Shown here in pieces: positions 2 through 61,872 of a stretch of 64,000 nucleotides of DNA (position 1 is its first letter; every line of letters starts with the position of its first letter). The DNA lies in the NCBI GenBank assembly GCA_030390025.1, contig CM059431.1:146012001-146076000 (forward strand), read 5' to 3'. The stretch is from Squalus acanthias. Its lineage: Eukaryota. The notes beneath the pieces were generated by a model. The model was not told the DNA's origin and ran no database searches. It worked only from the letters and a program-made list of their open reading frames with translations. Position numbers and translations under genes: made by a program.

Positions 2-2455
2 GCCCTGGCGATCAAGCTCCCTAGCACCATGAGCGCGCAGCAAGCCGAGCTGTCTGCCGTGGTGTACGTTGTGACCCACCCAGACATTTTCCCAACCCCA
101 TACACGATTTGCTCGGACAGTATGTTCACCTGCAATTCGTGTACGGAATACCTGGCCATTTGGTCCCGCCGCGGATACACCTCCGCGGACGGGCGACCTT
201 TAACGGTGAAGCCCTTGCTGGAAAAGATCTTAGCAGCAGCAGTAGGGGAGGAAGGAGAGATTTTCATCCATAAGGTGAAAGCTCACTCCTCCACAGAGCC
301 CCGTGGGGAGGGCAACCGGCAGGCGGATGCGCTAGCCAGGGAAGGTGCCCGCGACGGCACTTTCTGGAACCCCTATAGGACCGGACCCATAGCAGCGGTC
401 CGAGGCGGGGACGGGAATCCCGGGAACACCAGGGTAGCATTGCCCCTAGACCTTAAGACCGTCCAAACCCAGGATCCCGCCCTAAAAGCAGTCCTAAAAA
501 CGATTGCTGAGGGGAGGCAGGTAGAAGGTCCGTACAGTACGGCAACCCTCTCAGTTAAGGAAGGCATGCTGTTCCGCGAGGAGCAGTGGGTTGTGCCGCA
601 GCAGCACAGGAGGGAATTCCTCCAGTTGGCTCACGAGGGACCAGGGGCAGGGCACCCCGGGCCCGAGGTTACCTGGCAACGGGTAGAGCAAGCGGGATGG
701 TGGCCAGGGCTCAGGGAACAAGTCCGCGAGTTCTGTGCAAGCTGTCTTGTGTGCGCTGCAAACAACCCAGACCCCCAGAAAAGGAAGGTGCCCATGGGAC
801 ACGTAAGAAGGGTAGAGGGACCATGGCAGTCGATACAGATCGACTATATAGGACCCCTGCCCACCACCCAGGGAGGTTATAAGTATTGCCTCGTCCTGGT
901 GGATGTGTTTTCCAAGTGGGTGGAAGCCTTCCCTTGTCGAACAGCTACGGCACTGGGTACAGCAAAAATCTTGGTCCGGGAAGTGTTCTCGCGGTGGGGA
1001 CTTCCCCGTTTTGTGGAGTCAGACCAAGGGAGTCATTTCACCGGCCAGGTGATGCAGAACACCCTCATGCTTTTGGGCATTGAAGGGAAGTGGCACGTAG
1101 CACACAATCCCCAGTCATCCGGGATTGTTGAACGTATGAACCGGACCCTGAAGGAGAAATTGAGGAAAGAGACTAGGAACTCGCCCCAAAAATGGGCGGA
1201 GGTTCTGCCTTTAGTCCTCATGGGGGTCCGGGCCAGTCAGTCAAAAAGTACGGGGTACTCCCCGCACGAGGTAATGACCGGGAGGCTCATGCAAACCCCC
1301 ACCCATGTGCTAGCACCGGTGCTCACTGAGGGTCAGCTCCAAGAGATAAGCAGGGACAAGTTCGCCCAGACTCTCTTGGAGCGCCTGAAGCAGGTTTATG
1401 AGCAGACGGCTGGGAACATGGGAAGGCAGCATCAGGGCAATCGCTTGTTGCTGGAACCCCGCAAAACGCGGGAGTGGGAAGTGGGAGACCAGGTCATGGT
1501 CAGAAACTACGCCAGAGTAGGGAGTCTGGAACCACTGTATATGGGACCCTACAACATTGTAGACAAGGCGAGTCCCATGGTTTACGCCGTAAAAGTACCT
1601 CGGCGCACTAAGTGGTTCCACATAAACCAATGCAAACTATACCAGCCAGGTGCGCAAGGGAAAACTACAGGGGTAAATCCCGCCAATGGGAAAGCACAGC
1701 CCCAGGTAGGACCACAAGGCACACAGGCAGGCATAGCAGCTTGCATCAGGGGAAGGGACATCCCGGACGATCATGCAGCGTTTTTCTGGAATTGGGGGTT
1801 AGATGAGGAAGAATTCAGGGTACCCGGGTCAGATGAGGATAGTGCAGATGAGAATAGTGATGACGACGGGTGGTTCCTGAGGAACGGTCTGGAGGGAATG
1901 GGGGCTGTAGGTAGAGATCCACACAGGGTGGACACCCAAGCTGCAGGTCTCGAAGACAGGAGGGAGGAGCTAGAGGAGGCAGGGCCAGCCGCTATGGGAG
2001 CACAGAGAGTACCGGTGTGGCTCCCAGAGATGTGGCCGCCCGCTTTGAACGTCCAGTCCTCGGGGGAGGCAGAGATCACGAGTGAAGGGCCGCCTGCTGG
2101 GCCGAGCAGGGCGGAGCCACGAACTGCAAGCCCCGAGGTTAGGGAGGCGGAGTCAGCGGAGGCGGAGCCAGCGACTGTGATGGAACGCCAGGTCATCCCG
2201 ATGGAAGTCTCGGAACCCGGTCCGTCCGTCACGGAAACCCCGCCCATAGCAACTCCCCGTAGGTCAAGTAGAGAACCCCAGCCCAGGAGGATGTGGTCAT
2301 GTCCCCAGACTGCCCCAAGGCGTAGAGTTAAGGTTAAGATAACCCAGATACAGACCGGCCACATTGCAGCAGTAACAGGCTGCGGCAGATCAGAGGGAAG
2401 GGTCAGTGCCCTCCCACCGTCGGGAAGAGCTCGCAGCAGCCTTCTCAGAATTTAA
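2..2455 (+). CDS. pol: Pol polyprotein C-terminal part (RNase H + integrase), 5'-partial
   Basis: The frame is open from nt 2. RNase H motifs: SAQQAEL, CSDS, HKVKAH, GNRQADALA. Integrase motifs: H-x6-H...CLVC zinc finger, QIDYIGP, ESDQGSHF and E exactly 35 residues after the second D (SSGIVERMNRTLK). A GPY motif and SH3-like CTD follow. Confidence 0.95.
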   Translation, partial: ALAIKLPSTMSAQQAELSAVVYVVTHPDIFPTPYTICSDSMFTCNSCTEYLAIWSRRGYTSADGRPLTVKPLLEKILAAAVGEEGEIFIHKVKAHSSTEPRGEGNRQADALAREGARDGTFWNPYRTGPIAAVRGGDGNPGNTRVALPLDLKTVQTQDPALKAVLKTIAEGRQVEGPYSTATLSVKEGMLFREEQWVVPQQHRREFLQLAHEGPGAGHPGPEVTWQRVEQAGWWPGLREQVREFCASCLVCAANNPDPQKRKVPMGHVRRVEGPWQSIQIDYIGPLPTTQGGYKYCLVLVDVFSKWVEAFPCRTATALGTAKILVREVFSRWGLPRFVESDQGSHFTGQVMQNTLMLLGIEGKWHVAHNPQSSGIVERMNRTLKEKLRKETRNSPQKWAEVLPLVLMGVRASQSKSTGYSPHEVMTGRLMQTPTHVLAPVLTEGQLQEISRDKFAQTLLERLKQVYEQTAGNMGRQHQGNRLLLEPRKTREWEVGDQVMVRNYARVGSLEPLYMGPYNIVDKASPMVYAVKVPRRTKWFHINQCKLYQPGAQGKTTGVNPANGKAQPQVGPQGTQAGIAACIRGRDIPDDHAAFFWNWGLDEEEFRVPGSDEDSADENSDDDGWFLRNGLEGMGAVGRDPHRVDTQAAGLEDRREELEEAGPAAMGAQRVPVWLPEMWPPALNVQSSGEAEITSEGPPAGPSRAEPRTASPEVREAESAEAEPATVMERQVIPMEVSEPGPSVTETPPIATPRRSSREPQPRRMWSCPQTAPRRRVKVKITQIQTGHIAAVTGCGRSEGRVSALPPSGRARSSLLRI

Positions 2456-2709
2456 AGGGGCCGCCCTGAGAACGGGCGGCACTGTATAGTAAGAATTTCT
2501 AAGTTTTAAGTTTATAGTTCAAGGTTAAGTTTATAGTTTTAATAAGGTTAAGTTTGTAGTGTTTTTAACAGAAAACGATAAAATGATGGGAGCTTTAAAG
2601 ATAGGTTTAGTTAAAAGTTTATACAGCGAACGTGGAAGTTTACGTGAGGCGAGGTCAGGGGACCCGCTCACCCTTCACAAAAGCCAGAGACTCTTGCGAG
2701 GCTGGCTAC

Positions 2710-2729
2710 CTCATTCTATCTGATCACAG
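2710..2729 (+). promoter_or_regulatory. Probable env splice acceptor
   Basis: The pyrimidine-rich ctcattctatctgatcacAG ends at 2729, 13 nt before the env ATG, as expected for a spliced env mRNA. Confidence 0.55.
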
Positions 2730-2742
2730 GAACCAAGGAAGG

Positions 2743-5094
2743 ATGGAACGAATTCTAGTATTGCTCGTGGCAATCGGATGTGGATTGGCCTGTCGAGGCT
2801 GCACCAAGGATGTCGTGGTGTTTGGATGTTCCGGGGACACGGCCCCCATCGCGGTGGATGGGACCGGAAGACGGGAGGCAGAGGAGACCAGCACCTATTT
2901 CCACAAGGGAAGGTGGCCAGGATGGCTGGGAACGAACTCAACGGAGTATTCTAGCACATCGGAGTTTGCCTACAAAGAGACTTCTTTACTGTGCCCCAAA
3001 GTAAGGATCATCGCACCCAGGATCAGCGTCACCATCGGCAAACGGATTTGTTTGACTTGTAGTGGGAAGGTCCCATTGAGCCGATGGTGGTGGCTGCGAA
3101 AGCTGAGCAAAACTATGAGGAACTCTTCGGTCGAGTGGGAACGACTGGGTAATAATACCCATCGGACAATTACGGGGACAGACGGACAAGTGAAAGTCTG
3201 TTGGGACAAATGGTGGGAACCGGATGAGGGAATTTATGTATGTATGTGGGGGTCAAAGTACGTTTGCCCCAAAGGCATCTCCATATTTTTCATTAATCAG
3301 TGGCAGGATAACGGACAGGGGATGAGGTGGGATGCGAGCACCAGGGGGTGCGGAGCCCCATTCTCCCCGATCCCAGTAAATGCCACTGAGCTCATTACGC
3401 GCCCACGCAAAGCCCCGCCCACGATTCCGGTGGTTCTAGCTGAGGAAGAAGGGTGCCCTAAAACTAGTAAGGGACCCGGGAATGGTTTGGTACTGGTCCC
3501 CACAGACCAGATACTATTTCAGGGAGTACATTACGCGGTGGCCTCGGTGATTTTAAATCTCACCGAGGTGCGGTTACCAGAGTGGTGCCCCAAAAAGACG
3601 GAACAGTTGTACCAGGTCCTGTTGACCAAGATGTTCAGACAATTTTACGAATTCGATTTCGCGGAAATTGATAAAACAAGTTTGTACACCGCACCACAGG
3701 AAGTTTTGAATCAAGCAGGGAGGCAAAGAAGGGGTTTGGTGAACGATGCGTTCACTGCTTTTAACACAGGTACATCTGTGGTCAACGCTCGAGACAGTGT
3801 GGAGCTGCAGACCCAGATTAATGGTTTAAAGACACAATTAAAAGACATTCTAACAGATGAGAATAAAGTGGTAGGGTCGGGTCTACACGAGGACCAAGCC
3901 ATGACTCTCCATTTAAAGGAAATTATAGCAGAGTTGGAGAAACATGCAAAGACGGTAAATGCCCTGATTAGGGAAGATCGGAATGCATCCGATCAAGCTG
4001 CGCAGAACGAGGTGTGCGTGCTTTACGGGGCGTGGTTACTGGGCGAGGGCCGCAGTAATTTGGAGGATTTAAAACAAGGTTTGGTTCCGTCCTGGATAAG
4101 TAACAAACACCTGCGGGCGCTCCACCCTTTTCAGAACGCATTAAGTCCGTGCCAGCTCAGGCTAGCTTCAGAAGCTTACCCAGTCCCCGTGGACTGCGGA
4201 CGTTCAAACCATACTATTATGGGAATAGTATTACGCATGCCGGTTTTGGGCGACACAGCAAAGCCCGCCCCGGTGTATCGGGTAGAGAACATTGGTGTCA
4301 TTCAGGGGGGAGCCCACATTCGTTACGCAGCGGTTCCACCTTACGTCATCCGCTGGGAGCAAACGATGACAGGTACAGATCTCTCTGGTTGTCGTGGCAG
4401 GGGAGCACACATAATACTGTGCCCCCAGCACTTGAATGCCTTTTTAACACCACAGTGCGGGTTCAGAACGACTGGCGCCAAGTCCATGAATTGCACCATG
4501 GAGGCAATGGCACAAGATCATGTGCCTCCGCAGGTAGCATACATCGGGGGTGGAACATATTGTGTTACCACTGCAGCGCAACACTACCAGCATGGAAACC
4601 GTAGCCGGTGTCCGGTGAGTGACAGCAGTTTCTGTTTTAAACCCAGGGCGGAAGTTCAAGTAGCACAACAGCGAATCATCCCAATCCCTGAACCATCCAC
4701 TGTTCATCTCACAGTAAAAGAGAATTTCACCGACTTGCAACGATTCGTCGCGCATTTCGGATACCTCATTCCCCCTCTCCCTGAACACCTCACCAAACTT
4801 TTAAAAGCCGTCGCGGTGTCACAGAAACATTTTTACACATTAGAGCAGAAAACTGTCGAAATAGGAACAGACATTTTGGATATAGTAGTTCCACCGTGGT
4901 GGAATCTGTTCACTAATATTGAAGTGCCTTCATGGATCAGAATAGCCTCCCACATTTTAGTCGTATGCCAAGTTTTCATTGTAGTGTACCTATTGGTCGT
5001 ACATTGTAAAAGAGACAAGCGCCTCACTAAGCATGAAAACACGGGAGAGTGGCGAGAACGTTACGTGCGCGTGCACGATGAAAGCACCGTGTGA
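2743..5094 (+). CDS. env: Envelope/fusion glycoprotein, 783 aa: signal peptide, Ig-like domain, furin site, heptad repeat, Cys-rich region, TM, short tail
   Basis: The ATG at 2743 begins a hydrophobic signal (MERILVLLVAIGCGLACRG). The furin site RQRR is at 3721-3732, followed by GLVNDAF and a heptad-like helix. There are ten N-X-S/T sequons and a TM segment (WIRIASHILVVCQVFIVVYLLVV). The ORF lies between pol and the LTR. Confidence 0.9.
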   Translation: MERILVLLVAIGCGLACRGCTKDVVVFGCSGDTAPIAVDGTGRREAEETSTYFHKGRWPGWLGTNSTEYSSTSEFAYKETSLLCPKVRIIAPRISVTIGKRICLTCSGKVPLSRWWWLRKLSKTMRNSSVEWERLGNNTHRTITGTDGQVKVCWDKWWEPDEGIYVCMWGSKYVCPKGISIFFINQWQDNGQGMRWDASTRGCGAPFSPIPVNATELITRPRKAPPTIPVVLAEEEGCPKTSKGPGNGLVLVPTDQILFQGVHYAVASVILNLTEVRLPEWCPKKTEQLYQVLLTKMFRQFYEFDFAEIDKTSLYTAPQEVLNQAGRQRRGLVNDAFTAFNTGTSVVNARDSVELQTQINGLKTQLKDILTDENKVVGSGLHEDQAMTLHLKEIIAELEKHAKTVNALIREDRNASDQAAQNEVCVLYGAWLLGEGRSNLEDLKQGLVPSWISNKHLRALHPFQNALSPCQLRLASEAYPVPVDCGRSNHTIMGIVLRMPVLGDTAKPAPVYRVENIGVIQGGAHIRYAAVPPYVIRWEQTMTGTDLSGCRGRGAHIILCPQHLNAFLTPQCGFRTTGAKSMNCTMEAMAQDHVPPQVAYIGGGTYCVTTAAQHYQHGNRSRCPVSDSSFCFKPRAEVQVAQQRIIPIPEPSTVHLTVKENFTDLQRFVAHFGYLIPPLPEHLTKLLKAVAVSQKHFYTLEQKTVEIGTDILDIVVPPWWNLFTNIEVPSWIRIASHILVVCQVFIVVYLLVVHCKRDKRLTKHENTGEWRERYVRVHDESTV

Positions 5095-5533
5095 TCGGAA
5101 AATGGCGTCACTCCCGCTCGCCACGTGCGCCGCGGAAGTTTGTACTCAATCATGATTTTCAGAGATTGTAAATACGTTTGGGAACTCGACATGTTTTAAG
5201 AGTTGGTGTTGATTATTTTGGTGATGGTGTTACAGTTAAAATTGATTGTTTGGTTTTGGGTTTTGTTTTTCCTTTCCCTGAATAAAAGATGAATATACAG
5301 GTGATACGAGAGGCATCGGCCTGGTTACGCCGGGAAGGAAAACAAGTGGTGTAAGTTTAAGGGCAAATAATGCCTACGGTGATATAAAATGTAATTTTCT
5401 TGGGAAATAAGGACGACACAGAGACCCTAATTAGGTTAAAGTTATGGGATTAATTTGCTGGATTCGGAGAGAAATCGAGATAATATTGCTCACCACTATG
5501 ATTTTTGATACGATAAGCGGAGTTATTCGCATC

Positions 5534-5545: not shown

Positions 5546-7166
5546 TGTAGAATTCGCAATATATCGCGATTTTATTAATAAGGAGAAAACACAGAGTTTC
5601 GTTCAAACAGCTTTTATTTCAGCAGAATGCTGACAGGTTTAAAGTGGACACAAGCAGCCTGTAAAATGGCCGCCGCACCTCGGGACAGAACATTCTAGAC
5701 TTTTCAACAGGCAGACAAGATGGCGTTCCAATAAACATTTGTGCAAGATCGATTAAGAGTCAGCACAGTGAAGATAATACACGAGACATTATGGGTTTGC
5801 AGTATACACATAGATACTGAAATCGGTCTCCCAGGTACAAAGGAAAGCCATTGTACCGAGTAATCAAGGGCCCATCCAAAGACATTAATATGTAAAATCC
5901 CAACGACTCTACGATGAGAGAGCCGTTAGCAGGTAGTTATACAGGACACTTGGAAGCCCCAAAACCCCTCCAGGGAGAACGCCGACCGATTTAACAATGG
6001 GAGAAATATTAACAGGTACTCAGACATTTACGAGTAGCCCCGAAACCCATTAAGAACGGAGATCACCCATACAAGACATTTGAGCGCCAGACCCTAAACA
6101 AAAGAATGGACATTATAGTTGGGCGGGAAACGGAAGATTTTTGCACTATAATTGCAGGCTCCAAACCGTCCATCTTTCTCTTGCTGCTCTTATCATCGTG
6201 GCTGCTCCTGTGTACTCGTAGTTGGGCTTCTGCTTGCCTGTTGCCTCTTCTGAAAAGACTGTTGAACTTTCTGATCCGTTCGGATCTACCTCGTGTCGCG
6301 TAACGAAGACCTATATTGGTAACCGGTATCGGAACCAAAAGGCCCGAGAAGAGATGAGATGAGATGAGATGAGAAGAGAGGAAGACCATATCCATCGCCA
6401 CGGTCAGTAAATCCCGACCGCGCCTGTAGGTCGATTAGCCAAGTTTTCCTTGCCAGGAAGACTTCTTCGAACTTGCAAAGAAACATATCGTATCGATGAT
6501 ATTGACAACTGTGCTCGAAAAGTACCTGTTAAACCAACCAACACAGGTCTTCATCACAGCAGACGTTCCAGCCTGCTAGCCGGAGCAGCAGAAGCAAGTA
6601 AACAAGTGGGACCAGGAGATCTCCTGACCGACACGTGGGTGCTGCGGTGAAAAACATCCGATCAGCTATTCGGAATTTCTCCGAGTTATCACGAGTGGTG
6701 AGCATGAGTCTCGAGATCCTACGAATCTAGTTTAGGATAGATATTGATAGGGGAGGGTTTAAGGATTAAGGATATTTGTAATGTGTGTCCCTATTTACTT
6801 TGTGCCGTTCGTTCCTCGTTTCCCTAAGATCGACTATATAACTGTTTGTAAGATTGTACTGTCATTAATCTGTGCTTATGACATGTATTTCATAATCTTA
6901 AGTATCATGCAATAAAGATTTTCCATTTCGTACCATTCAAACCGAGTCTACATGAGTTTCATCTCCATTACTGCTCTCGCATCTAAGTCCAGTGTCTAGA
7001 ACCGTAAGGGAGAGTGATTCGAACCACTCACAGGTGTGTCTAGTGTTCCCAGACTGGCTGGAGACCAGAACAGGCAACAAGGCCTAGACCCGCACTGACA
7101 TACAGGCTGCACAGAGCCGCGTGAATCTCACAGGCTGCGAGACACGCAGGGTCAGAATCCCTTACA
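5546..7166 (+). repeat. 3' LTR (~1.62 kb) of the provirus
   Basis: Starts TGTA after the PPT and ends ...cccTTACA just before the host AG microsatellite (TGTA/TACA terminal inverted repeat). It contains a GC box (6121), an ETS-like cggaag (6131), TATAAT (6147) and AATAAA (6911). The 5' LTR is not available to confirm the ends. Confidence 0.7.
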
Positions 7167-7324
7167 CTAGAGACAGAGAGAGAGAGAGACCGAGAGAGAG
7201 ACAGAGATAGAGACATAGATAGACTGAGAGAGAGAGAGAGAGAGATGAAGAGAGAGTGACAGAGAGAGAGAGAGACCGAGAGAGACAGAGATAGAAACAT
7301 AGATAGAGTGAGAGAGAGAGAGAG

Positions 7325-17118: not shown

Positions 17119-17390
17119 ACACCCGAACCCTGACCCTGAAACCCCCGACCCTGACCCTGAACCCCCGACCCCAATCCCTGAACCCCCGAGCCCAAACCCT
17201 CAACCCCCGACCCCAAACCCTCAACCCCGCAACTCCTGAATCCCTCGACCACAAACCTTGAACCCCCGACCCCAAACCCTCAGCCCCGCAACTCCTGAAT
17301 CCCACGACTCCAAACCCTGAACCCCACGACCCCAAACCCTGAACCACGCAGCTCCTGACCCCGAACCCCGGACACCGCAACCCCTGAACT
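17119..17390. repeat. ~21-bp C-rich tandem repeat (aaaccctgaacccccgacccc)
   Basis: Repeated aaccct/cccga units; the opposite strand is G-rich. Confidence 0.85.
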
Positions 17391-20300
17391 CCACGACAGG
17401 AGTGAATCGCTCCCTTTTACCCGCTGTGTGTACTGTACATGTACAGGAGCTGACACTGAGACACACACAGGCCGTACAGTAACAGAGGGAGTGAATCGTT
17501 CCTTTTACCCGCTGTGTGTGCTGTACATGTACAGAAGCTGACACTGAGACACACACAGGCCGTACAGTACCAGACGGGAGTGAATTGTTCCCTTTTACCT
17601 GCTCTGTGTACTGTACATGTATAGGAGCTGATACTGAGACACACATGGGCCGTACAGTACCAGACGGGAGTGAATCGCTCCCTTTTATCCACTGTGTGTA
17701 CTGTACATGTACAGGAGCTGACACTGAGACACACACAGGCCGTACAGTACCAGACGGGAGTGAATCGTTCCCTTTTATCCACTGTGTGTACTGTACATGT
17801 ACAGTAGCTGACAGTGAGTCACACACGGGCCGTACAGTACCAGACGGGAGTGAATTGTTCCCTTTTACCTGCTCTGTGTACTGTACATGTATAGGAGCTG
17901 ATATTGAGACACACACGGGCCGTACAGTACCAGACGGGTGTGAATCAATCCCTTTTACCCGCTGTGTACTGTACATGTACAGGAGCTGACACTGAAACAC
18001 ACACGGGCCGTACAGTATCAGACGGGAGTGAATCGTTCCTTTTACCCGCTGTGTGTGCTGTACATGTTCAGTACCTGACACTGAGACACACACGGGCCGT
18101 TCTGTATCATATGGGAATGAATCTTTCCCTTTTACCTGCTGTGTGTACTGTCCATGTATAGGAGCTGACACTGAGACACACACGGGCTGTACAGTACCAG
18201 ACGGGTGTGAATCGTTCCCTTTTTCCCGCTGTGTACTGGACATGTACAGGAGCTGTCACTAAGGCTCACACGGGGCCGTACAGCACCAGACAGGAGTGAA
18301 TCGTTCCCTTTACCCGCTGTGTGTACTGCACATGTACAGGAGCTGATACTGAGGCACACACGGGCCGTGCAGTACCAGAAGGGAGTGAATCATTCCCTAA
18401 TACCCGCTGTGTGTGCTGTACATGTTCAGGACCTGACACTGAGACACACACGGGCCGTTCAGTATCATATGGGAATGAAATCTTTCCCTTTTACCCGCTG
18501 TGTGTACTGTCCATGTACAGGAGCTGACACTGGGTCACACACGGGCCGTACAGTACCAGACGGGTGTGAATCGTTCCCTTTTACCCGCTGTATACTGAAC
18601 ATGTACAGGAGCTGACACTGAGACACACGGGCCGTACAGTACCAGACGGGAGTGAATCGCTCCCTTTTACCCGCTGTTTATACTGGACATGTACAGGAGC
18701 TGTCACTGAGACACACACGGGCCGTACAATACCAGACAGGAGTGAATCGTTCCCTTTACCCGCTGTGTGTACTGCACATGTACAGGAGCTGACACTGAGA
18801 CACACACGGGCCGTACACTAGCAGACGGGAGTGAATTGTTCCCTTTTAACCGCTGTCTGTACTGTACATGTACAGGAGCTGACACTGAGACACATACGGG
18901 CCGTACAGTACCAGACGGGAGTGAATCATTCTCTTTTTCCCGCTGTGTGTACTGTACATGTACAGGAGCTGACACTGAGACACACATGGGCCGTTCAGTA
19001 GCAGACGGGTGTGAATCGTTCCCTTTTACCCGCTGTGTGTACTGTACATGTATAGGAGCTGACATTGAGACACACATGGGCTGTACAGTACCAGACGGGA
19101 GTGAATCGTTCCTTTTACCCGCTGTGTGTACTGTACATGTACAGGAGCTGACACTGAGACACACACGGGCCGTTCAGTATCAGACAGGAAGAAATCTTTC
19201 CCTTTGACCCGCTGTGTACTGTACATGTCCCGGAGCTGACACTGAGACACACACTGGCCGTTCAGTACCAGACTTAAGTGAATCGTTCCGTTCTACCCGC
19301 TGTGTGTACTGTACATGTACAGGAGCTGAAAACTGAGACACACACGTGCCATACATTACCAGACGGGAGTGAATCATTCCCTTCTACCCGCAGTGTACTG
19401 TACATGTACAAGAGCCGACACTGAGACACACACGGGCCATACAGTACCAGACGGGAGTGAATCTTTCCCCATTACCCGCTGTGTGTACTGTCAATGTAAA
19501 GGAGCTGACACTGAGACACACACGGGCTGTACAGTACCAGACTGAAGTGAATTGTTCCCTTTTACCCGCTATGTGTACTGTACATGTACAGGAGCTGACA
19601 CTGAGACACACACGGGCTGTACAGTACCAGACGGGAGTGAATCGCTCCCTTTTACCCACTGTGTGTGCTGTACATCTACAGGAGCTGACACTGAGACACA
19701 CACGGACTGTACAGTACCAGATGGGAGTGAATCGTTCCCTTTTACCCGCTGTGTGCTGTACATGTACAGGAGCTGACACTGAGACACACACGGGCCGTAC
19801 AGTACCAGACGGGAGCGAATCGTTCACTTTTACCAGCTGTGTGTACTGTCCATGTACAGGAGCTGACACTGAGACACACACGGGCCGTACAGCACCAGAC
19901 GGGAGTGAATTGTTCCCTTTTACCCGCTGTGTACTGTACATGTACAGGAGCTGACATTGAGACACACACGGGCCATACAGTACCAGACGGGAGTGAATCT
20001 TTCCCCATTACCCGCTGTGTGTACTGTCAATGTAAAGGAGCTGACACTGAGACACACACGGGCTGTACAGTACCAGACTGAAGTGAATTGTTCCCTTTTA
20101 CCCGCTATGTGTACTGTACATATACAGGAGCTGACACTGAGACACACACGGGCCGTACAGTACCAGACGGGAGCGAATCGTTCACTTTTACCAGCTGTGT
20201 GTACTGTCCATGTACAGGAGCTGACACTGAGACACACACGGGCCGTACAGCACCAGACGGGAGTGAATTGTTCCCTTTTACCCGCTGTGTACTGTCCATG

Positions 20301-22743: not shown

Positions 22744-52644
<29,901 letters not shown>

Positions 52645-52865: not shown

Positions 52866-55800
52866 GCCCCCCTCGGACCCCACTCCAGCCCCACTCCGCC
52901 TCTCGGCCCCCCTCGAGCCTGGCTCCGTCACTCGGCCCCCCTCGAGCCTGACTCCTCCACTCGGCCCCCCTCGAGCCCCGCTCCGCCACTCGGCCCCCCT
53001 CGAGCCTGACTCCACCACTCGGCCCCCCTCGAGCCTGGCTCCGTCACTCGGCCCCCCTCGAGCCTGGCTCCGTCACTCGGCCCCCCTCGAGCCTGACTCC
53101 TCCACTCGGCCCCCCTCGAGCCCCGCTCCGCCACTCGGCCCCCCTCGAGCCTGACTCCTCCACTCGGCCCCCCTCGAGCCCGCTCCACCCCTCGGCCCCC
53201 CTCGAGCCTGGCTCCGCCCCTCGGCCCCGGCTCCGCCCCTCGGCCCCCCTCGAGCCTGGCTCCGCCCCTCGGCCCCGGCTCCGCCCCTCGGCCCCCTTCG
53301 AGCCCTCTCCGCCCCTCGGCCCCCCTCGAGCCCGCTCCGCCTGTCAGCCCCCCTCGAGCCTGGCTCCGTCACTCGGACCCACTCGAGCCCCACTCCGTCA
53401 CTCGGCCCCCCTCGAGCCTGGCTCCGTCACTCGGCCCCCCTCGAGCCTGGCTCCGTCACTCGGCCCCACTCGAGCCCCACTCCGCCTCTCGGCCCCCCTC
53501 GAGCCTGGCTCCGTCACTCGGCCCCACTCGAGCCTGGCTCCGCCACTCGGCCCCCCTCGAGCCTGACTCCGCCACTCGGCCCCTCTCGAGCCAGGCTCCG
53601 TCACTCGGCCCCACTCGAGCCAGGCTCCGCCACTCGGCCCCCCTCGAGCCTGGCTCCGTCACTCGGCCCCCCTCGAGCCTGGCTCCGTCACTCGGCCCCC
53701 CTCGAGCCCGCTCCGCCCCTCGGCCCCCCTCGAGCCTGGCTCCGTCACTCGGCCCCCCTCGAGCCCGCTCCGTCACTCGGCCCCCCTCGAGCCCGCTCCG
53801 CCCCTCGGCCCCCCTCGAGCCCCGCTCCGCCCCTCGGCCCCCCTCGAGCCCGCTCCGCCCCTCGGCCCCCCTCGAGCCTGGCTCTGTCACTCGGCCCCCC
53901 TCGAGCCCGCTCCGCCCCTCGGCCCCCCTCGAGCCCCGCTCCGTCACTCGGCCCCCCTCGAGCCCCGCTCTGTCACTCGGCACCCCTCGAGCCCCGCTCC
54001 GTCACTCGGCCCCCCTCGAGCCCCGCTCCGCCACTGGGCCCCCCTCGAGCCCGCTCCGCCCCTCGGCCCCCCTCGAGCCCCGCTCCGCCCCTCGGCCCCC
54101 CTCGAGCCCGCTCCGCCCCTCGGCCCCCCTCGAGCCTGGCTCTGTCACTCGGCCCCCCTCGAGCCCGCTCCGCCCCTCGGCCCCCCTCGAGCCCCGCTCC
54201 GTCACTCGGCCCCCCTCGAGCCCCGCTCTGTCACTCGGCACCCCTCGAGCCCCGCTCCGTCACTCGGCCCCCCTCGAGCCCCGCTCCGCCACTGGGCCCC
54301 CCTCGAGCCCGCTCCGCCCCTCGGCCCCCCTCGAGCCTGGCTCCGCCTCTCGGCCCCCCTCGAACCTGGCTCCACCTCTCGGTCCCCCGCGAGCCCCGCT
54401 CCGCCACTGGGCCCCCCTTGAGCCCCGCTCCGCCCCTCGGCCCCTCTCGAGCCCGCTCCGCCCTCGGCCCCCCTCGAGCCCCGCTCCGTCACTCGGCCCC
54501 CCTCGAGCCCGCTCCGCCCCTCGGCCCCCCTCGAGCCCCGCTCCGCCACTGGGCCCCCCTCGAGCCCCGCTCCGTCACTCGGCCCCCCTCGAGCCCGCTC
54601 CGGCCCTCGGCCCCCTCGAGCCTGGCTCCGCCCCTCGGCCCCCCTCGAGCCCGCTCCGCCCCTGGCCCCCCTCGAGCTCGCTCCGCCTGTCGGCCCCCCT
54701 CGAGCCTGGCTCCGCCACTCGGCCCCCCTCGAGCCCCGATCCGCCACTCGGCACCCCTCGAGCCCCGCTCCGCCCCTCGGCCCCCTCGAGCCCGCTCCGC
54801 CCCTCGGCCCCCCTCGAGCCTGGCTCCGCCCCTCGGCCCCCCTCGAGCCACGCTCCGTCACTCGGCCCCCCTCGAGCCCCGCTCCGTCACTCGGCCCCCC
54901 TCGAGCCCCGCTCCGTCACTCGGCCCCCCTCGAGCCCGCTCCGCCCCTCGGCCCCCCTCGAGCCAGGCTCCGTCACTCGGCTCCCCTCGAGCCCCGCTCC
55001 GTCACTCGGCCCCCCTCGAGCCCCGCTCCGTCACTCGGCCCCCCTCGAGCCCGCTCCGCCCCTCGGCCCCCCTCGAGCCTGGCTCCGTCACTCGGACCCC
55101 CTTGAGCCCCGCTCCGCCACTCGGCCCCCCTCGAGCCTGGCTCCGTCACTCGGCCCCCCTCAAGCCCTGCTCCGTCACTCGGACCCCCTCGAGCCCGCTC
55201 CGCCCCTCGGCCCCCCTCGAGCCTGGCTCCGTCACTCGGCCCCCCTTGAGCCTGGCTCCGTCACTCGGCCCCCCTCGAGCCCCGCTCCTTCACTCGGCCC
55301 CCCTCGAGCCCCGCTCCGCCACTCGGCCCCCCTCGAGCCCCGCTCCGCCACTCGGCCCCCCTCGAGCCCGCTCCGCCACTCGGCCCCCCTCGATCCTGGC
55401 TCCGCCCCTCGGCCCCCCTCGAGCCTGGCTCCGCCCCTCGGCCCCCCTCGAGCCTGGCTCCGCCCCTCGGCGCCCCTCGAGCCCGCTCCGACCCTCGGCC
55501 CCCCTCGAGCCCGCTCCGCCTGTCGGCCCCCCTCGAGCCTGGCTCCGCCTCTCGGCCCCCCTTGAGCCCGCTCCGCCACTGGGCCCCCCTCGAGCCCGCT
55601 CCGCCTCTCGGCCCCCCTCGAGCCTGGCTCCGCCTCTCGGCCCCCCTCGAGCCTGGCACCGCCTCTCGGCCCCCCTCGAGCCTGGCTCCGTCACTCGGCC
55701 CCCCTCGAGCCTGGCTCCGCCTCTCGGCCCCCCTCGAGCCTGGCTCCGCCTCTCGGCCCCCCTCGAGCCTGGCTCCGCCTCTCGGCCCCCCTCGAGCCCG

Positions 55801-58800
55801 CTCCGCCTCTCGGCCCCCCTCGAGCCTGGCTCCGTCTCTCGGCCCCCCTCGAGCCTGGCTCCGTCACTCGGCCCCCCTCGAGCCTGGCTCCGCCTCTCGT
55901 CCCCCTCGAGCGTGGCTCCGCCTCTCGGCCCCCCTCGAGCTGGCTCCGCCTGTCGGCCCCACTCGAGCCCGCTCCGCCTCTCGGCCCCCCTCGAGCCTGG
56001 CTCCGTCTCTCGGCTCCCCCTCGAGCCTGGCTCCGCCTCTCGGTCCCCCTCGAGCCCGCTCCGCCACTGGGCCCCCCTCGAGCCCCGCTCCGCCACTCGG
56101 CCCCCCTCGAGCCCCGCTCCGCCACTCGGCCCCCCTCGAGCCTGGCTCCGTCTCTCGGCTCCCCTCGAGCCCGGCTCCGCCACTCGGCCCCCCTCGAGCT
56201 CGCTCCGCCTGTCGGCCCCCCTCGAGCCTGGCTCCGCCACTCGGCCCCCCTCGAGCCCCGCTCCGCCACTCGGCCCCCCTCGAGCCCCGCTCCGCCCCTC
56301 GGCCCCCCTCGAGCCCGCTCCGCCCCTCGGCCCCCCTCGAGCCTGGCTCCGCCCCTCGGCCCCCCTCGAGCCACGCTCCGTCACTCGGCCCCCCTCGAGC
56401 CCCGCTCCGTCACTCGGCCCCCCTCGAGCCCCGCTCCGTCACTCGGCCCCCCTCAAGCCCGCTCCGCCCCTCGGCCCCCCTCGAGCCAGGCTCCGTCACT
56501 CGGCTCCCCTCGAGCCCCGCTCCGTCACTCGGCCCCCCTCGAGCCCCGCTCCGTCACTCGGCCCCCCTCGAGCCCGCTCCGCCCCTCGGCCCCCCTCGAG
56601 CCTGGCTCCGTCACTCGGACCCCCTTGAGCCCCGCTCCGCCACTCGGCCCCCATCGAGCCTGGCTCCGTCACTCGGCCCCCCTCAAGCCCTGCTCCGTCA
56701 CTCGGACCCCCTCGAGCCCGCTCCGCCCCTCGGCCCCCCTCGAGCCTGGCTCCGTCACTCGGCCCCTCTTGAGCCTGGCTCCGTCACTCGGCCCCCCTCG
56801 AGCCCCGCTCCTTCACTCGGCCCCCCTCGAGCCCCGCTCCGCCACTCGGCCCCCATCGAGCCCCGCTCCGCCACTCGGCCCCCCTCGAGCCCGCTCCGCC
56901 ACTCGGCCCCCCTCGATCCTGGCTCCGCCCTCGGCCCCCCTCGAGCCTGGCTCCGCCCCTCGGCCCCCCTCGAGCCTGGCTCCGCCCCTCGGCGCCGCTC
57001 GAGCCCGCTCCGACCCTCGGCCCCCCTCGAGCCCGCTACGCCTGTCGGCCCCCCTCGAGCCTGGCTCCGCCTCTCGGCCCCCCTTGAGCCAGCTCCGCCA
57101 CTGGGCCCCCCTCGAGCCCGCTCCGCCTCTCGGCCCCCCTCGAGCCTGACTCCGCCTCTCGGCCCCCCTCGAGCCTGGCCCCGCCACTCGGCCCCCTCGA
57201 GCCTGGCTCCGTCACTCGGCCTCCCACGAGCCTGGCTCCGCCTCTCGGCCCCCTCGAGCCTGGCTCCGCCTCTCGGCCCCCCTCGAGCCTGGCTCCGCCT
57301 CTCGGCCCCCCTCGAGCCCGCTCCGCCTCTCGGCCCCCCTCGAGCCTGGCTCCGTCTCTCGGCCCCCCTCGAGCCTGGCTCCGTCACTCGGCCCCCCTCG
57401 AGCCTGGCTCCGCCTCTCGTCCCCCTCGAGCGTGGCTCCGCCTCTCGGCCCCCCTCGAGATGGCTCCGCCTGTCGGCCCCCCTCGAGCCCGCTCCGCCTC
57501 TCGGCCCCCCCTCGAGCCTGGCTCCGTCTCTCGGCTCCCCTCGAGCCTGGCTCCGCCTCTCGGTCCCCCTCGAGCCCGCTCCGCCACTGGGCCCCCCTCG
57601 AGCCCCGCTCCGCCACTCGGCCCCCCTCGAGCCCCGCTCCACCACTCGGCCCCCCCTCGAGCCTGGCTCCGTCTCTCGGCTCCCCTCGAGCCCGGCTCCG
57701 CCACTCGGCCCCCCTCGAGCCCCGCTCCGCCACTCGGCCCCCCTCGAGCCCCGCTCCGCCACTCGGCCCCCCTCGAGCCCCGCTCCGCCACTCGGCCCCC
57801 CTCGAGCCCGGCTCCGCCACTCGGCCCCCCTCGAGCCCCACTCCGCCACTCGGCCCCCCTCGAGCCCGCTCCGCTCCTCGGCCCCCCTGGATCCTGGCTC
57901 CGCCCCTCGGCCCCCCTCGAGCCTGGCTCCGACCCTCGGCCCCCCTCGAGCCTGGCTCCGCCCCTCGGCCCCCCCTCGAGCCCGCTCCGACCCTCGGCCC
58001 CCCCTCGAGCCCGCTCCGCCCTGTCGGCCCCCCTCGAGCCTGACTCCGCCTCTCGGCCCCCCTGGAGCCCGCTCCGCCACTCGGCCCCCCTCGAGCCCCG
58101 CTCCACCACTCGGCCCCCCTCGAGCCTGGCTCCGTCTCTCGGCTCCCCCTCGAGCCCGCTCCGCCACTCGGCCCCCCTCGAGCTCGCTCCGCCTGTCGGC
58201 CCCCCTCGAGCCTGGCTCCGCCACTCGGCCCCCCTCGAGCCCGATCCGCCACTCGGCCCCCTCGAGCCCCGCTCCGCCCCTCGGCCCCCCTCGAGCCCGC
58301 TCCGCCCCTCGGCCCCCCTCGAGCCTGGCTCCGCCCCTCGGCCCCCCTCGAGCCACGCTCCGTCACTCGGCCCCCCTCGAGCCCCGCTCCGTCACTCGGC
58401 CCCCCTCGAGCCCCGCTCCGTCACTCGGCCCCCCTCGAGCCCGCTCCGCCCCTCGGCCCCCCTCGAGCCAGGCTCCGTCACTCGGCTCCCCTCGAGCCCC
58501 GCTCCGTCACTCGGCCCCCCTCGAGCCCCGCTCCGTCACTCGGCCCCCCTCGAGCCCGCTCCGCCCCTCGGCCCCCCTCGAGCCTGGCTCCGTCACTCGG
58601 CCCCCCTCGAGCCCCGCTCCGCCACTCGGCCCCCATCGAGCCTGGCTCCGTCACTCGGCCCCCCTCGAGCCCTGCTCCGTCACTCGGCCCCCCTCGAGCC
58701 CGCTCCGCCCCTCGGCCCCCCTCGAGCCTGGCTCCGTCACTCGGCCCCCTCTGAGCCGGCTCCGTCACTCGGCCCCCCTCGAGCCCCGCTCCTTCACTCG

Positions 58801-61440
58801 GCCCCCCTCGAGCCCCGCTCCGCCACTCGGCCCCCCTCGAGCCCCGCTCCGCCACTCGGCCCCCCTCGAGCCCGCTCCGCCACTCGGCCCCCCCTCGATC
58901 CTGGCTCCGCCCCTCGGCCCCCCTCGAGCCTGGCTCCGCCCCTCGGCCCCCCTCGAGCCTGGCTCCGCCCCTCGGCGCCCCTCGAGCCCGCTCCGACCCT
59001 CGGCCCCCCTCGAGCCCGCTACGCCTGTCGGCCCCCCTCGAGCCTGGCTCCGCCTCTCGGCCCCCCTTGAGCCCGCTCCGCCACTGGGCCCCCCTCGAGC
59101 CCGCTCCGCCTCTCGGCCCCCCTCGAGCCTGGCTCCGCCTCTCGGCCCCCCTCGAGCCTGGCACCGCCTCTCGGCCCCCCTCGAGCCTGGCTCCGTCACT
59201 CGGCCTCCCTCGAGCCTGGCTCCGCCTCTCGGCCCCCCTCGAGCCTGGCTCCGCCTCTCGGCCCCCCTCGAGCCTGGCTCCGCCTCTCGGCCCCCCTCGA
59301 GCCCGCTCCGCCTCTCGGCCCCCCTCGAGCCTGGCTCCGTCTCTCGGCCCCCCTCGAGCCTGGCTCCGTCACTCGGCCCCCCTCGAGCCTGGCTCCGCCT
59401 CTCGTCCCCCTCGAGCGTGGCTCCGCCTCTCGGCCCCCCTCGAGATGGCTCCGCCTGTCGGCCCCCCTCGAGCCCGCTCCGCCTCTCGGCCCCCCTCGAG
59501 CCTGGCTCCGTCTCTCGGCTCCCCTCGAGCCTGGCTCCGCCTCTCGGTCCCCCTCGAGCCCGCTCCGCCACTGGGCCCCCCTCGAGCCCCGCTCCGCCAC
59601 TCGGCCCCCCTCGAGCCCCGCTCCGCCACTCGGCCCCCCTCGAGCCCGGCTCCGTCTCTCGGCTCCCCTCGAGCCCGGCTCCGCCACTCGGCCCCCCTCG
59701 AGCCCCGCTCCGCCACTCGGCCCCCCTCGAGCCCGCTCCGCCACTCGGCCCCCCTCGAGCCCCGCTCCGCCACTCGGCCCCCCTCGAGCCCGGCTCCGCC
59801 ACTCGGCCCCCCTCGAGCCCCGCTCCGCCACTCGGCCCCCCTCGAGCCCGCTCCGCTCCTCGGCCCCCCTGGATCCTGGCTCCGCCCCTCGGCCCCCCTC
59901 GAGCCTGGCTCCACCCCTCGGCCCCCCTCGAGCCTGGCTCCGCCCCTCGGCCCCCCTCGAGCCCGCTCCGACCCTCGGCCCCCCTCGAGCCCGCTCCGCC
60001 TGTCGGCCCCCCTCGAGCCTGGCTCCGCCTCTCGGCCCCCCTGGAGCCCGCTCCGCCACTGGGCCCCCCTCGAGCCCCACTCCGCCACTCGGCCCCCCTC
60101 GAGCCTGGCTCCGTCTCTCGGCTCCCCTCGAGCCCGGCTCCGCCACTCGGCCCCCCTCGAGCCCCGCTCCGCCACTCGCCCCCCCTCGAGCCCCGCTCCG
60201 CCACTCGGCCCCCCTCGAGCCCGCCTCCGCCACTCGGCCCCCCTCGAGCCCCGCTCCGCCACTCGGCCCCCCTCGAGCCCGGCTCCGCCACTCGGCCCCC
60301 TCGAGCCCCGCTCCGCCACTCGGCCCCCTTCGAGCCCGCTCCGCCCATCGGCCCCCCTCGATCCTGGCTCTGCCCCTCGGCCCCCCTGGAGCCTGGCTCC
60401 GCCCCTCGGCCCCCCTGAGCCTGGCTCCGCCCCTAGGCCCCCCTCGAGCCTGGCTCCGCCGCTCGGCCCCCCTCGAGCCCGCTCCGACCCTCGGCCCCCC
60501 TCGAGCCCGCTCCGCCTGTCGGTCCCCCTCAAGCCTGGCTCCGCCTCTCGGCCCCCCTCGAACCCGCTCCGCCACTGGGCCCCCCTCGAGCCCGCTCCGC
60601 CTCTCGGCCCCCCTCGAGCCTGGCTCCGCCTCTCGGCCCCCCTCGAGCCTGGCTCCGCCTCTCGGCCCCCCTCGAGCCTGGCTCCGCCTCTCGGCCCCCC
60701 TCGAGCCCGCTCCGCCTCTTGGCCCCCCTCGAGCCTGCCTCCGTCTCTCGGCCCCCCTCGAGCCTGGCTCCGTCACTCGGCCCCCCTCGAGCCTGGCTCC
60801 GTCACTCGGCCCCCCTCGAGCCCCGCTCCGCCACTCGGCCCCCCTCGAGCCTGGCTCCGCCTCTCGGCCCCCCTCGAGCCTGGCTCCGCCTCTCGGCCCC
60901 CCTCGAGCCTGGCTCCGCCACTCGGCCCCCCTCGAGCCTGGCTCCGCCCCTCGGCCCCCCTCGAGCCCCGCTCCGCTTCTCGGCCCCCCTCGAGCCCGGC
61001 TCCGCCACTCGGCCCCCCTCGAGCCCGCTCCGCCCCTCGGCCCCCATCGATCCTGGCTCCGCCCCTCGGCCCCCCTTGAGCCTGGCTCCGCCCCTCAGCC
61101 CCCCTCGAGCCTGGCTCCGTCACTCGGCCCCCCTCGATCCCCGCTCCGCCACTCGGCCCCCCTCGAGCTCGCTCCGCCTGTCGGCCCCCCTCGAGCCCGG
61201 CTCCGCCACTCGGCCCCCCTCGAGCCTGGCTCCGCCCCTCGGCCCCCCTCGAGCCCCGCTCCGCCCCTCGGCCCCCCTCGAGCCCCGCTCCGCCACTGGC
61301 CCCCCTCGAGCCCGCTCCGCCCCTCGGCCCCCCTCGAGCCTGGCTCCGCCCCTCGGCCCCCCTCGAGCCTGGCTCCGCCCCTCGGCCCCCCTCGAGCCTG
61401 GCTCCGCCACTCGGCCCCCCTCGAGCCCCGCTCCGCCACT
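52866..61440. repeat. ~28-30-bp GC-rich minisatellite (ctcggcccccctcgagcctggctccgcca), ~8.5 kb
   Basis: Tandem units with higher-order blocks. The variant gagccacgc recurs at 54845, 56368 and 58350. Confidence 0.97.
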
Positions 61441-61872
61441 CTAGGGTAGAGAATTCCAAAGATTCACTGCCCTCTGTGTGAAGAAATTTCGTCTCATCTC
61501 AGTCCTGAATGGCCTACCCTTTATCCTGAGGCTGTGGCCCCTGGTTCTAGACTCCCCAGCAGAGGGAAACATTCTCCCAGCATCCACCCTATCAAGCCCT
61601 GTGATAATTTTGTATGCTTGAATGAGATCCCCTCTCATTCTTCTGAATTCAAGAGAGTACAGGCCTAGTTTACTCAATCTCTTCTCATACGACAGTCCCG
61701 CCATCCCAGGAATCAATCTCGTGAACCTTCGTTGCACTCCCTCTATGGCAAGTATATCCTTCCTTAGGTAAGGAGACCAAAATTGTACACAGTACTCCAG
61801 GCGTGGTCTCACCAAGGCCCTGTATAATTGGATTAAGACTTCTTTACTCCTGTACTCAAATCCTCTTGTAAT
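61441..61872 (-). mobile_element. CR1 fragment, same family as 25742-27764
   Basis: Near-identical to 25942-26372; encodes VRPRLEYCVQFWSPYLRKD... Confidence 0.92.

Follow-up and report, generated by a model that had tools for sequence, protein, structure and literature searches.

The window examined here is a stretch of 64,000 nucleotides from Squalus acanthias (assembly GCA_030390025.1, contig CM059431.1, positions 146,012,001 to 146,076,000 of the forward strand). It begins within an endogenous retrovirus, and the subject of this report is the envelope (Env) protein of that element, in particular its N-terminal module. The env open reading frame (ORF) occupies positions 2743 to 5094 of the plus strand, with the ATG at 2743 and the stop codon at 5092-5094, and encodes 783 amino acids. 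In the ORF listing, the frame stays open upstream to a GTG at 2632. Unless stated otherwise, coordinates are those of the window and features lie on the plus strand.

Env starts with a putative signal peptide (Env 1-19, MERILVLLVAIGCGLACRG, positions 2743 to 2799), which was read by eye from the sequence. The N-terminal module that follows comprises about 220 residues (Env 20-237), with ten Cys residues downstream of the signal peptide. Its first part precedes the immunoglobulin (Ig)-like segment and is referred to as the pre-Ig segment (Env 20-84, 65 residues, positions 2800 to 2994). The alignment and a scan for Cys and NxS/T motifs located C20, C29 and C84 in it, together with a conserved WPGWLGxNST.YSS stretch and a predicted glycosylation site at N65. 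The Ig-like segment itself (Env 85-183, positions 2995 to 3291) contains C106...W117...D161-x-G-x-Y-x-C167 and the extra conserved residues C103, C153 and C175. The post-Ig segment, with a Pro/Thr/basic linker (positions 3292 to 3453), carries C203, a predicted glycosylation site at N213 and the sequence TRPRKAPPTIP at Env 219-229. It is the least conserved stretch, with 54% identity to the L032 subfamily and 39-50% in the match pieces that cover most of it. The fusion region is made up of an F2-like part (Env 238-330, positions 3454 to 3732), which begins at a Cys-Pro motif and ends at RQRR (residues 327-330, positions 3721-3732), and an F1-like part (Env 331-783, positions 3733 to 5091).

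The Ig-like segment of the N-terminal module

A preliminary description of this DNA, made from the letters alone, had reported an Ig-type motif at positions 2995 to 3291. The translation of this interval, PKVRIIAPRISVTIGKRICLTCSGKVPLSRWWW...DEGIYVC..., corresponds exactly to Env 85-183, and the reported spacing was also found: W117 lies 11 residues past C106, C106 and C167 are 61 residues apart, and DEGIYVC occupies residues 161-167. A Pro/Thr/basic linker between this segment and the fusion module had been described as well. The linker is present at residues 219-229, but it does not directly follow the Ig-like segment, since residues 184-218, with C203 and N213 amongst them, intervene first.

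The arrangement of hallmark residues is rare by chance and is maintained amongst relatives. When the Env sequence was shuffled 20,000 times, a loosely defined form of the motif, C-x(9-14)-W-x(35-65)-D-x-G-x-Y-x-C, arose in only 7 cases. C103, C106 and W117 were invariant in all eight aligned relatives (48-73% identity), and C167 was kept in all seven whose alignment reaches it. Within the DxGxYxC motif of these seven, the first place was D in three and E in four, G was present in all and Y in six; the remaining relative, L031, has C at the Tyr place.

Searches with the segment and its relatives returned Ig domains. The Pfam family Ig_3 matched four of six relatives, with a best E-value of 0.0013, and matched the window segment itself at E 0.02. 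A phmmer search of the whole Env against PDB gave the second Ig domain of JAM-A as the best match (E 0.89), and profiles built from six and eight relatives both gave the V domain of CRTAM (E 0.015 and 0.013, respectively). The CRTAM alignment extends from one end of the domain to the other and brings the first Cys, the Trp and the DEGxYxC motif into register; DIP-eta was next in the profile search, at E 0.042. The likeness to these V/I-set domains extends to the length of the domain, the B-strand Cys, the C-strand Trp and the D-x-G-x-Y-x-C motif before the F-strand Cys. The differences are that the E-values reach only 0.013-0.89 and that the window segment has extra conserved Cys residues (103, 153 and 175) and a Trp cluster. 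In the ESM Atlas, nine of the ten best named look-alikes belonged to the Ig clan with scores of 0.88-0.91, scores that shuffled proteins sometimes reach. Structural comparisons were made with a low-confidence AlphaFold2 (AF2) model of Env 20-240. Foldseek rows at E 0.035-0.17 were, by title, nearly all antibody or nanobody complexes, along with a novel immune-type receptor of fish. In VIA-align, model residues 64-172 (Env 83-191) aligned with Ig V domains, with Z-scores of 4.0-4.8 and a root-mean-square deviation (rmsd) of 3.3-4.4 A over 83-99 residues.

Several observations weigh against the Ig assignment. The Ig_3 match to the window segment scored 15.8 bits against a cut-off of 30, and Pfam found no Ig family at E <= 1 in the whole Env. 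All E-values for the Ig segment from sequence searches of PDB were 0.01 or higher. The AF2 model of Env 20-240, built from a nine-sequence alignment, had a mean predicted local distance difference test (pLDDT) score of 35, which makes it unusable as a test of the fold. With that model, Foldseek gave no match at E <= 0.001, and VIA-align placed none of 996 chains at Z >= 5, where values below 8 can mean no more than an arrangement that many proteins share. The abundance of antibodies in PDB is a further caveat on any structural match to Ig domains. Additionally, some features of the segment are atypical for an Ig domain, namely a WWW cluster (WWWLRK, in which W117 is the third Trp), a CWDKWW sequence and the conserved C103, C153 and C175.

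Altogether, these observations point to Env 85-183 as an Ig-like (V/I-set type) beta-sandwich pinned by a C106-C167 bond. We regard this fold as probable and not as proven, because the concordant results each remain below significance and the fold model is of low confidence. The Ig-superfamily reading of the preliminary description is therefore upheld in part. Its motif stands, and the sub-threshold Pfam, PDB, ESM and structural matches are all to Ig domains, although none is significant. The same applies to two of the checks proposed there: Pfam did match Ig_3, yet at about half the cut-off score, and AF2 with Foldseek, run on Env 20-240, gave only weak Ig V-domain matches from a poor model.

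The fusion part and the relatives of Env

Residues 236-722 were modelled with AF2 from a 37-sequence alignment, which gave a mean pLDDT of 73.3 and a predicted template-modelling (pTM) score of 0.57. The model runs from N-terminal strands through two very long helices and a beta-rich region to a C-terminal helix. The F2-like part is predicted as beta strands with a pLDDT of about 90. The F1-like part was delimited with the help of this model, the Foldseek matches to F proteins and a hydropathy scan. In the model, the long heptad repeat A (HRA) helices lie at about 332-444, after the fusion-peptide region, the beta-rich domains at about 477-645 and the heptad repeat B (HRB) helix at about 680-714 (positions 4780-4884); the scan places the membrane anchor at about 732-755 (positions 4936-5007), followed by a short tail. 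This is a class I layout, with RQRR at 327-330 followed by long helices and a further helix ahead of the anchor.

The best Foldseek match of this model in PDB was the F protein of human parainfluenza virus 3 (hPIV3; 1ztm_B, E 8.8e-12, probability 1.00, about 500 columns). Post-fusion F of respiratory syncytial virus (RSV), the Langya protein and F of Newcastle disease virus ranked next, then prefusion F, so that the top of the list consisted solely of F proteins; there were 243 matches at E <= 0.001, and many F structures were matched at probability 1.00. The template-modelling (TM) scores to F structures were modest (0.25-0.43) and the rmsd values large, as is expected for elongated multi-domain proteins compared in different conformations. 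In BFVD, the best matches were arthropod and fish mononegavirus glycoproteins, and paramyxovirus F0 was also matched. The same search returned baculovirus F (E 3.7e-10), the epsilonretrovirus Envs of walleye epidermal hyperplasia virus 1 (WEHV-1, 1.2e-9) and walleye dermal sarcoma virus (WDSV, 1.9e-5), and feline foamy virus gp130 (1.3e-4).

The preliminary label of an F-type envelope is borne out by this match to paramyxo- and pneumovirus F, and the predicted fold supports Env as a class I fusion protein of the paramyxovirus-F type. Sequence searches weigh on the other side. The Pfam family PF00523 (Fusion_gly) was unmatched by the window Env at E <= 1 and by ten relatives at E <= 0.1, amongst which a single protein gave a faint Baculo_F match (E 0.0011). 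The 37-sequence profile found no F chain in PDB, all 17 matches being at E >= 0.36. Env thus resembles F of hPIV3 (1ztm) and RSV (3rki) in its predicted fold over residues 236-722 and in the order of a short F2-like part, a basic cleavage site, HRA, beta domains, HRB and an anchor. It differs in sequence, with 9-15% identity and no sequence-level match, and in having about 220 extra residues before F2 and no accompanying second glycoprotein gene. Paramyxovirus and pneumovirus F proteins mostly rely on a separate attachment protein. To our knowledge, these F proteins carry no extra domain at their N-terminus, and classical retroviral surface subunits have no such Ig domain.

An exhaustive search of 1.84 billion representative proteins gave 50 at E <= 0.001, each aligning with some portion of Env. 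For the N-terminal module (residues 1 to about 230), the only matches were skate, sawshark and whale shark proteins and a few contigs, at 38-75% identity; the genera carrying a module of the window type were Rhinoraja, Pristiophorus and Rhincodon. More distant full-length relatives came from bamboo shark, hound shark, two frogs and others, and a partial one from the coelacanth. These align only from about residues 221-237 onward, beginning at the invariant Cys-Pro (C238 and P239), a motif shared across the family. The preliminary description had proposed that the virus acquired an Ig-superfamily domain, and this could not be substantiated, as no close host homologue that might have served as donor was present amongst the 50 proteins.

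Upstream of the Cys-Pro motif, the relatives differ. One set, which includes P0014 and P0035, has a C...W...C pattern. P0014, a shark protein, bears the UniRef name 'Ig-like domain-containing protein' and has a module of a type different from that of the window, and P0035 gave a V-set match at E 0.045. P0013 and P0024 have an N-terminal Cys-rich stretch of another kind, and P0037 and P0048 (the latter from Latimeria) have a signal peptide only, with no N-terminal module. Profile comparisons (hhalign) of the window-type module with P0014, P0020, P0049, P0035, the frog-type pair and the second shark type gave E-values of 0.051-0.6, none of them significant. The frog-type module had no Ig match in PDB and weak Ig-clan look-alikes only (0.83-0.84), and the second shark type matched antibody V domains in PDB at E 0.27-0.93 only. 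As these comparisons are non-significant, we do not claim that the other module types are Ig-like or homologous to that of the window. The frog protein P0020 has a hydrophobic stretch within its first 45 residues, then a basic site (REKR) and then its N-terminal module, a layout reminiscent of a cleaved leader peptide as judged from the sequence; in P0049, the other frog protein, only a matching basic site (RNKR) was seen.

The genome of S. acanthias itself holds further members. Other subfamilies with a window-type module were represented by 150 scored matches of 5,830 candidates, at 49-59% identity. A second set of F-type Envs with a P0014-type module (L034-L041) gave 46 matches, the best at 75-77%, and its more divergent lineages reached 29-42%. 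This set is an older family in which most long matches are broken by stops, and it has the motif ...C.C...W.W...QTLNWP..W...C. The Cys-rich N-terminus of the P0013 type was not found in this genome with P0013 as the query.

Comparison with the L032 subfamily showed how conservation is distributed along the protein. Identity to the window Env was 55% in the pre-Ig, 65% in the Ig and 54% in the post-Ig segment, 74% in F2 and 79-87% in F1. The proportion of nonsynonymous differences (pN) in the Ig part was 0.21 against a proportion of synonymous differences (pS) of 0.71. In F1, pN was 0.10, roughly half the value for the Ig part. Synonymous differences are saturated (pS about 0.7), which leaves dS, the synonymous rate, and with it the estimate of selection only rough, and this counts against leaning heavily on it. 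From the identities, the pN and pS values and the differing N-termini of relatives, the N-terminal module is apparently constrained, changes at a higher rate than the fusion part and can be replaced between lineages.

The provirus, its copies and its surroundings

Upstream of env, positions 2 to 2455 hold the 3' part of pol, which encodes RNase H, an integrase (H2C2 zinc domain, core and SH3-like C-terminal domain) and a tail of about 250 amino acids. The Pfam E-values were 9.1e-15 for RNase_H, 1.1e-17 for Integrase_H2C2 and 2.6e-15 for rve. The tail (positions about 1700-2455) extends some 250 residues past the integrase, is acidic and rich in Pro, Ser and Glu, and matches no Pfam family. In some copies, about 38-41 bp near 2369-2409 are duplicated relative to the window. 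Downstream of env lies the 3' long terminal repeat (LTR; positions 5546 to 7166, 1,621 bp, TG...CA), with a purine-rich tract ahead of it.

The 5' half of the element lies in L033, the 10 kb directly upstream of the window. The two LTRs are identical in blastn (5546-7166 and L033:4534-6154, 1621 of 1621 bases) and are flanked by the target-site duplication CTAG, at positions 7167 to 7170 and at L033:4530-4533. The complete provirus measures about 12.6 kb and is inserted within a long GA-rich simple repeat. In L033, a 627-codon frame without a Pfam match, presumed to be gag, ends at an in-frame stop (L033:7968-7970). The frame after that stop encodes protease, reverse transcriptase (RT) and two RNase H-like domains (RT_RNaseH and RT_RNaseH_2), and continues into the window. 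The presumed gag and pro-pol lie in the same phase with one stop codon between them, which suggests read-through expression of pol. There is no further long frame between pol, env and the 3' LTR, and none in the provirus encodes a second glycoprotein, so Env would be its sole glycoprotein.

Copies of env are numerous in this genome of 3.7 Gb. At least 57 span all residues 1-783 at 99-100% identity, and 56 of these are without stops; the search scored 57 of 12,905 first-look candidates, and the copy counts are lower bounds. At 20 of these loci, the DNA is 97-98% identical to that of the window over about 5.3 kb. The provirus family is very young and of high copy number. At locus L004 (G000:C3764:137101-142449), the LTR end corresponding to window position 7166 directly abuts sequence equivalent to window position about 2502, a short way ahead of env, giving a copy without gag-pol. 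Amongst contigs of public sequencing runs, 45-57% of sampled 31-letter words of env (positions 2400-5200) were present under six organism labels, which implies near-identical copies in several data sets or species labels. None of the 14 runs listed was labelled as RNA. Contig depth was higher over env than over pol in two presumed-RNA runs and flat in two others; as contig depth cannot rank the parts of a gene, it was not taken as evidence of expression.

The remainder of the window contains unrelated features. ORFs of a non-LTR retrotransposon lie on the minus strand at 24533-29121, two with RVT_1 (E 2.4e-33 and 1e-34) and one with an endonuclease domain, and an 8.6-kb minisatellite of about 80% G+C occupies 52872-61441 (29-base unit, about 298 copies). 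A 340-amino-acid ORF on the minus strand at 17221-18243 was weakly similar to the V-set Ig-like domain of G6b-B (E 7.7e-5; 23.1 bits, with the cut-off at 24.3), and may be a host Ig-like exon or a chance resemblance.

Proposed role, alternatives and significance

The nearest described systems are the lokiretroviruses, retroviruses with an F-like Env that occur in lampreys, bony fishes, amphibians and reptiles according to the available text of Wang and Han (2020, PMC7947760). Their Env is likewise described there as similar to paramyxo- and pneumovirus F, with a signal peptide, an RXKR-type site, a fusion peptide, a coiled coil and an anchor. The window provirus shares with them a dual RNase H in pol (RT_RNaseH and RT_RNaseH_2 upstream, RNase_H in the window) and an F-like Env, and differs in that its Env lacks a PF00523 match. 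The nearest named relatives of its RT are proteins of Xenopus tropicalis and Latimeria chalumnae (50-51%) that share its dual RNase H make-up; the supplement of PMC7947760 scores both species as positive. That supplement counts four of six Anura and the one coelacanth as positive, and none of three Orectolobiformes and of one Chimaeriformes. The words 'immunoglobulin', 'shark' and 'cartilaginous' are absent from the main text as available. By RT similarity and dual RNase H make-up, the window element appears lokiretrovirus-like.

The explanation that best accounts for these findings, and which we favour if only by a modest degree of confidence, is an F-type Env with an Ig-like N-terminal attachment module. 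Env would be the glycoprotein of a complete and very recently inserted endogenous retrovirus, with a signal peptide, a surface part (residues 20-330), a furin-type site at RQRR330 and a membrane-anchored F1-like part. Its maturation would involve removal of the signal peptide, furin-type cleavage after R330, formation of the C106-C167 bond and F-like trimerisation. The Ig-like domain of the module would then bind a host cell-surface molecule and attach the particle, and the F-like part would refold and fuse the membranes. As to the module alone, we consider the chances of a receptor-binding role to be about even. A receptor-binding or decoy role had been proposed in the preliminary description too, and its basis would lie in the position and variability of the module. 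Such a role is suggested because the provirus has no separate gene for an attachment protein or second glycoprotein, because the module sits in the surface subunit, because its rate and pattern of exchange resemble those of receptor-binding parts, and because the F scaffold has a stated precedent for binding modules, which it accommodates at the N-terminus or as insertions in the account given in the available text of a paper on foamy virus Env (PMC11468914).

The same text describes the coronavirus spike as an F-like scaffold with an N-terminal binding module, a design like that proposed here, and the foamy virus Env as different, with its receptor-binding domain inserted between the two subunits and not at the N-terminus. 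The epsilonretrovirus Envs of WEHV-1 and WDSV and foamy virus gp130 are alike in matching the model of Env 236-722. The modules of the coronavirus spike, foamy virus Env and epsilonretrovirus Env are, in the portions of that paper describing them, not called Ig-like.

An attachment role is not the only use to which an Ig-like domain could be put. It might instead cap or regulate the prefusion trimer, shield the protein from antibodies or act as a decoy for immune receptors, with attachment left to the pre- or post-Ig segments or to the F-like head. The relatives P0037 and P0048, which lack an N-terminal module, fit such a reading in that the F-like core may suffice for entry. Within the module, conservation is also highest in the Ig segment (65%, with 54-55% in its flanks), which would be unexpected for the most contested receptor-contact surface. 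We nevertheless hold this alternative to be possible but unlikely, given that the provirus offers no second glycoprotein gene, that the module changes more quickly than the fusion part and is swapped between lineages, and that F-like scaffolds with a receptor-binding module at the N-terminus are already known according to the accessible part of PMC11468914.

The doubt may also be directed at the fold itself. The module could be real and conserved without being an Ig domain, as a lineage-specific Cys- and Trp-rich domain in which a pattern like C...W...DxGxYxC occurs by chance. Every Ig score is sub-threshold, AF2 was unable to fold the module and the structural Z-scores stay below 5; the ten Cys residues past the signal peptide, the unusual WWWLRK and CWDKWW motifs and the non-significant profile comparisons with other module types speak in the same direction. 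This reading is improbable in our estimation, because five different methods point to the Ig clan alone, the hallmark residues line up with those of CRTAM in an alignment of full domain length, and the pattern was so rare amongst shuffled sequences. That the joining of the Ig-like segment to env is an artefact, through a chimeric locus, misassembly or read-through into a host exon, was considered since the gene models of two homologues are fused with host genes (P0004 with a Niban-like and P0005 with a ZFP2-like gene). This is almost certainly wrong for the window: the uninterrupted 783-residue ORF recurs at 57 places, the LTRs and target-site duplication are intact, and other subfamilies and the skate protein likewise carry the module in one piece with the fusion part. 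Misassembly or a chimera is refuted by this repetition of the full ORF and of the same arrangement. An Ig-like attachment module on an F-type Env remains the reading that we prefer.

The full-text-searchable literature, which excludes subscription journals and bioRxiv supplements, held no relevant description of an Ig-like domain in a retroviral, lokiretroviral or F-type Env. A paper on zebrafish Env38 mentions Ig-like domains only for CD4, and an eLife/bioRxiv paper dealing with the F-type Envs of invertebrate elements leaves vertebrate endogenous retroviruses aside. The domain had been put forward as part of an undescribed system, and this holds for the searchable literature; there is, however, the UniRef entry already naming shark P0014, with its other type of module, 'Ig-like domain-containing protein'. 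Within the literature searched, this automatic name on one shark homologue is the sole prior trace of an Ig-like reading.

F-like retroviral Envs have been known since 2020, and we found nothing in print on how they find their receptors. A separable, lineage-variable N-terminal module with an Ig-like core would be a testable candidate for receptor binding in the F-type retroviral Envs. The present element extends retroviruses with F-type Envs to cartilaginous fishes, here elasmobranchs; of four cartilaginous-fish genomes in the 2020 screen, in its available portions, none was positive (PMC7947760). It may also be a further case of the design of a minimal F scaffold with an added binding module, as set out for the coronavirus spike and foamy virus Env in the available text of PMC11468914. 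The head types seen to date are the window type, the second shark type, the Cys-rich type and none. As a broader scenario, which we put forward as speculative and on balance doubtful, an early-vertebrate F-type retrovirus could have taken up an adhesion-type Ig domain as a receptor-binding head, exchange of heads could drive receptor switching, and the window family could still be spreading in living elasmobranchs. If true, the uptake of an Ig head by such a virus would have given it a self-sufficient attachment-and-fusion protein.

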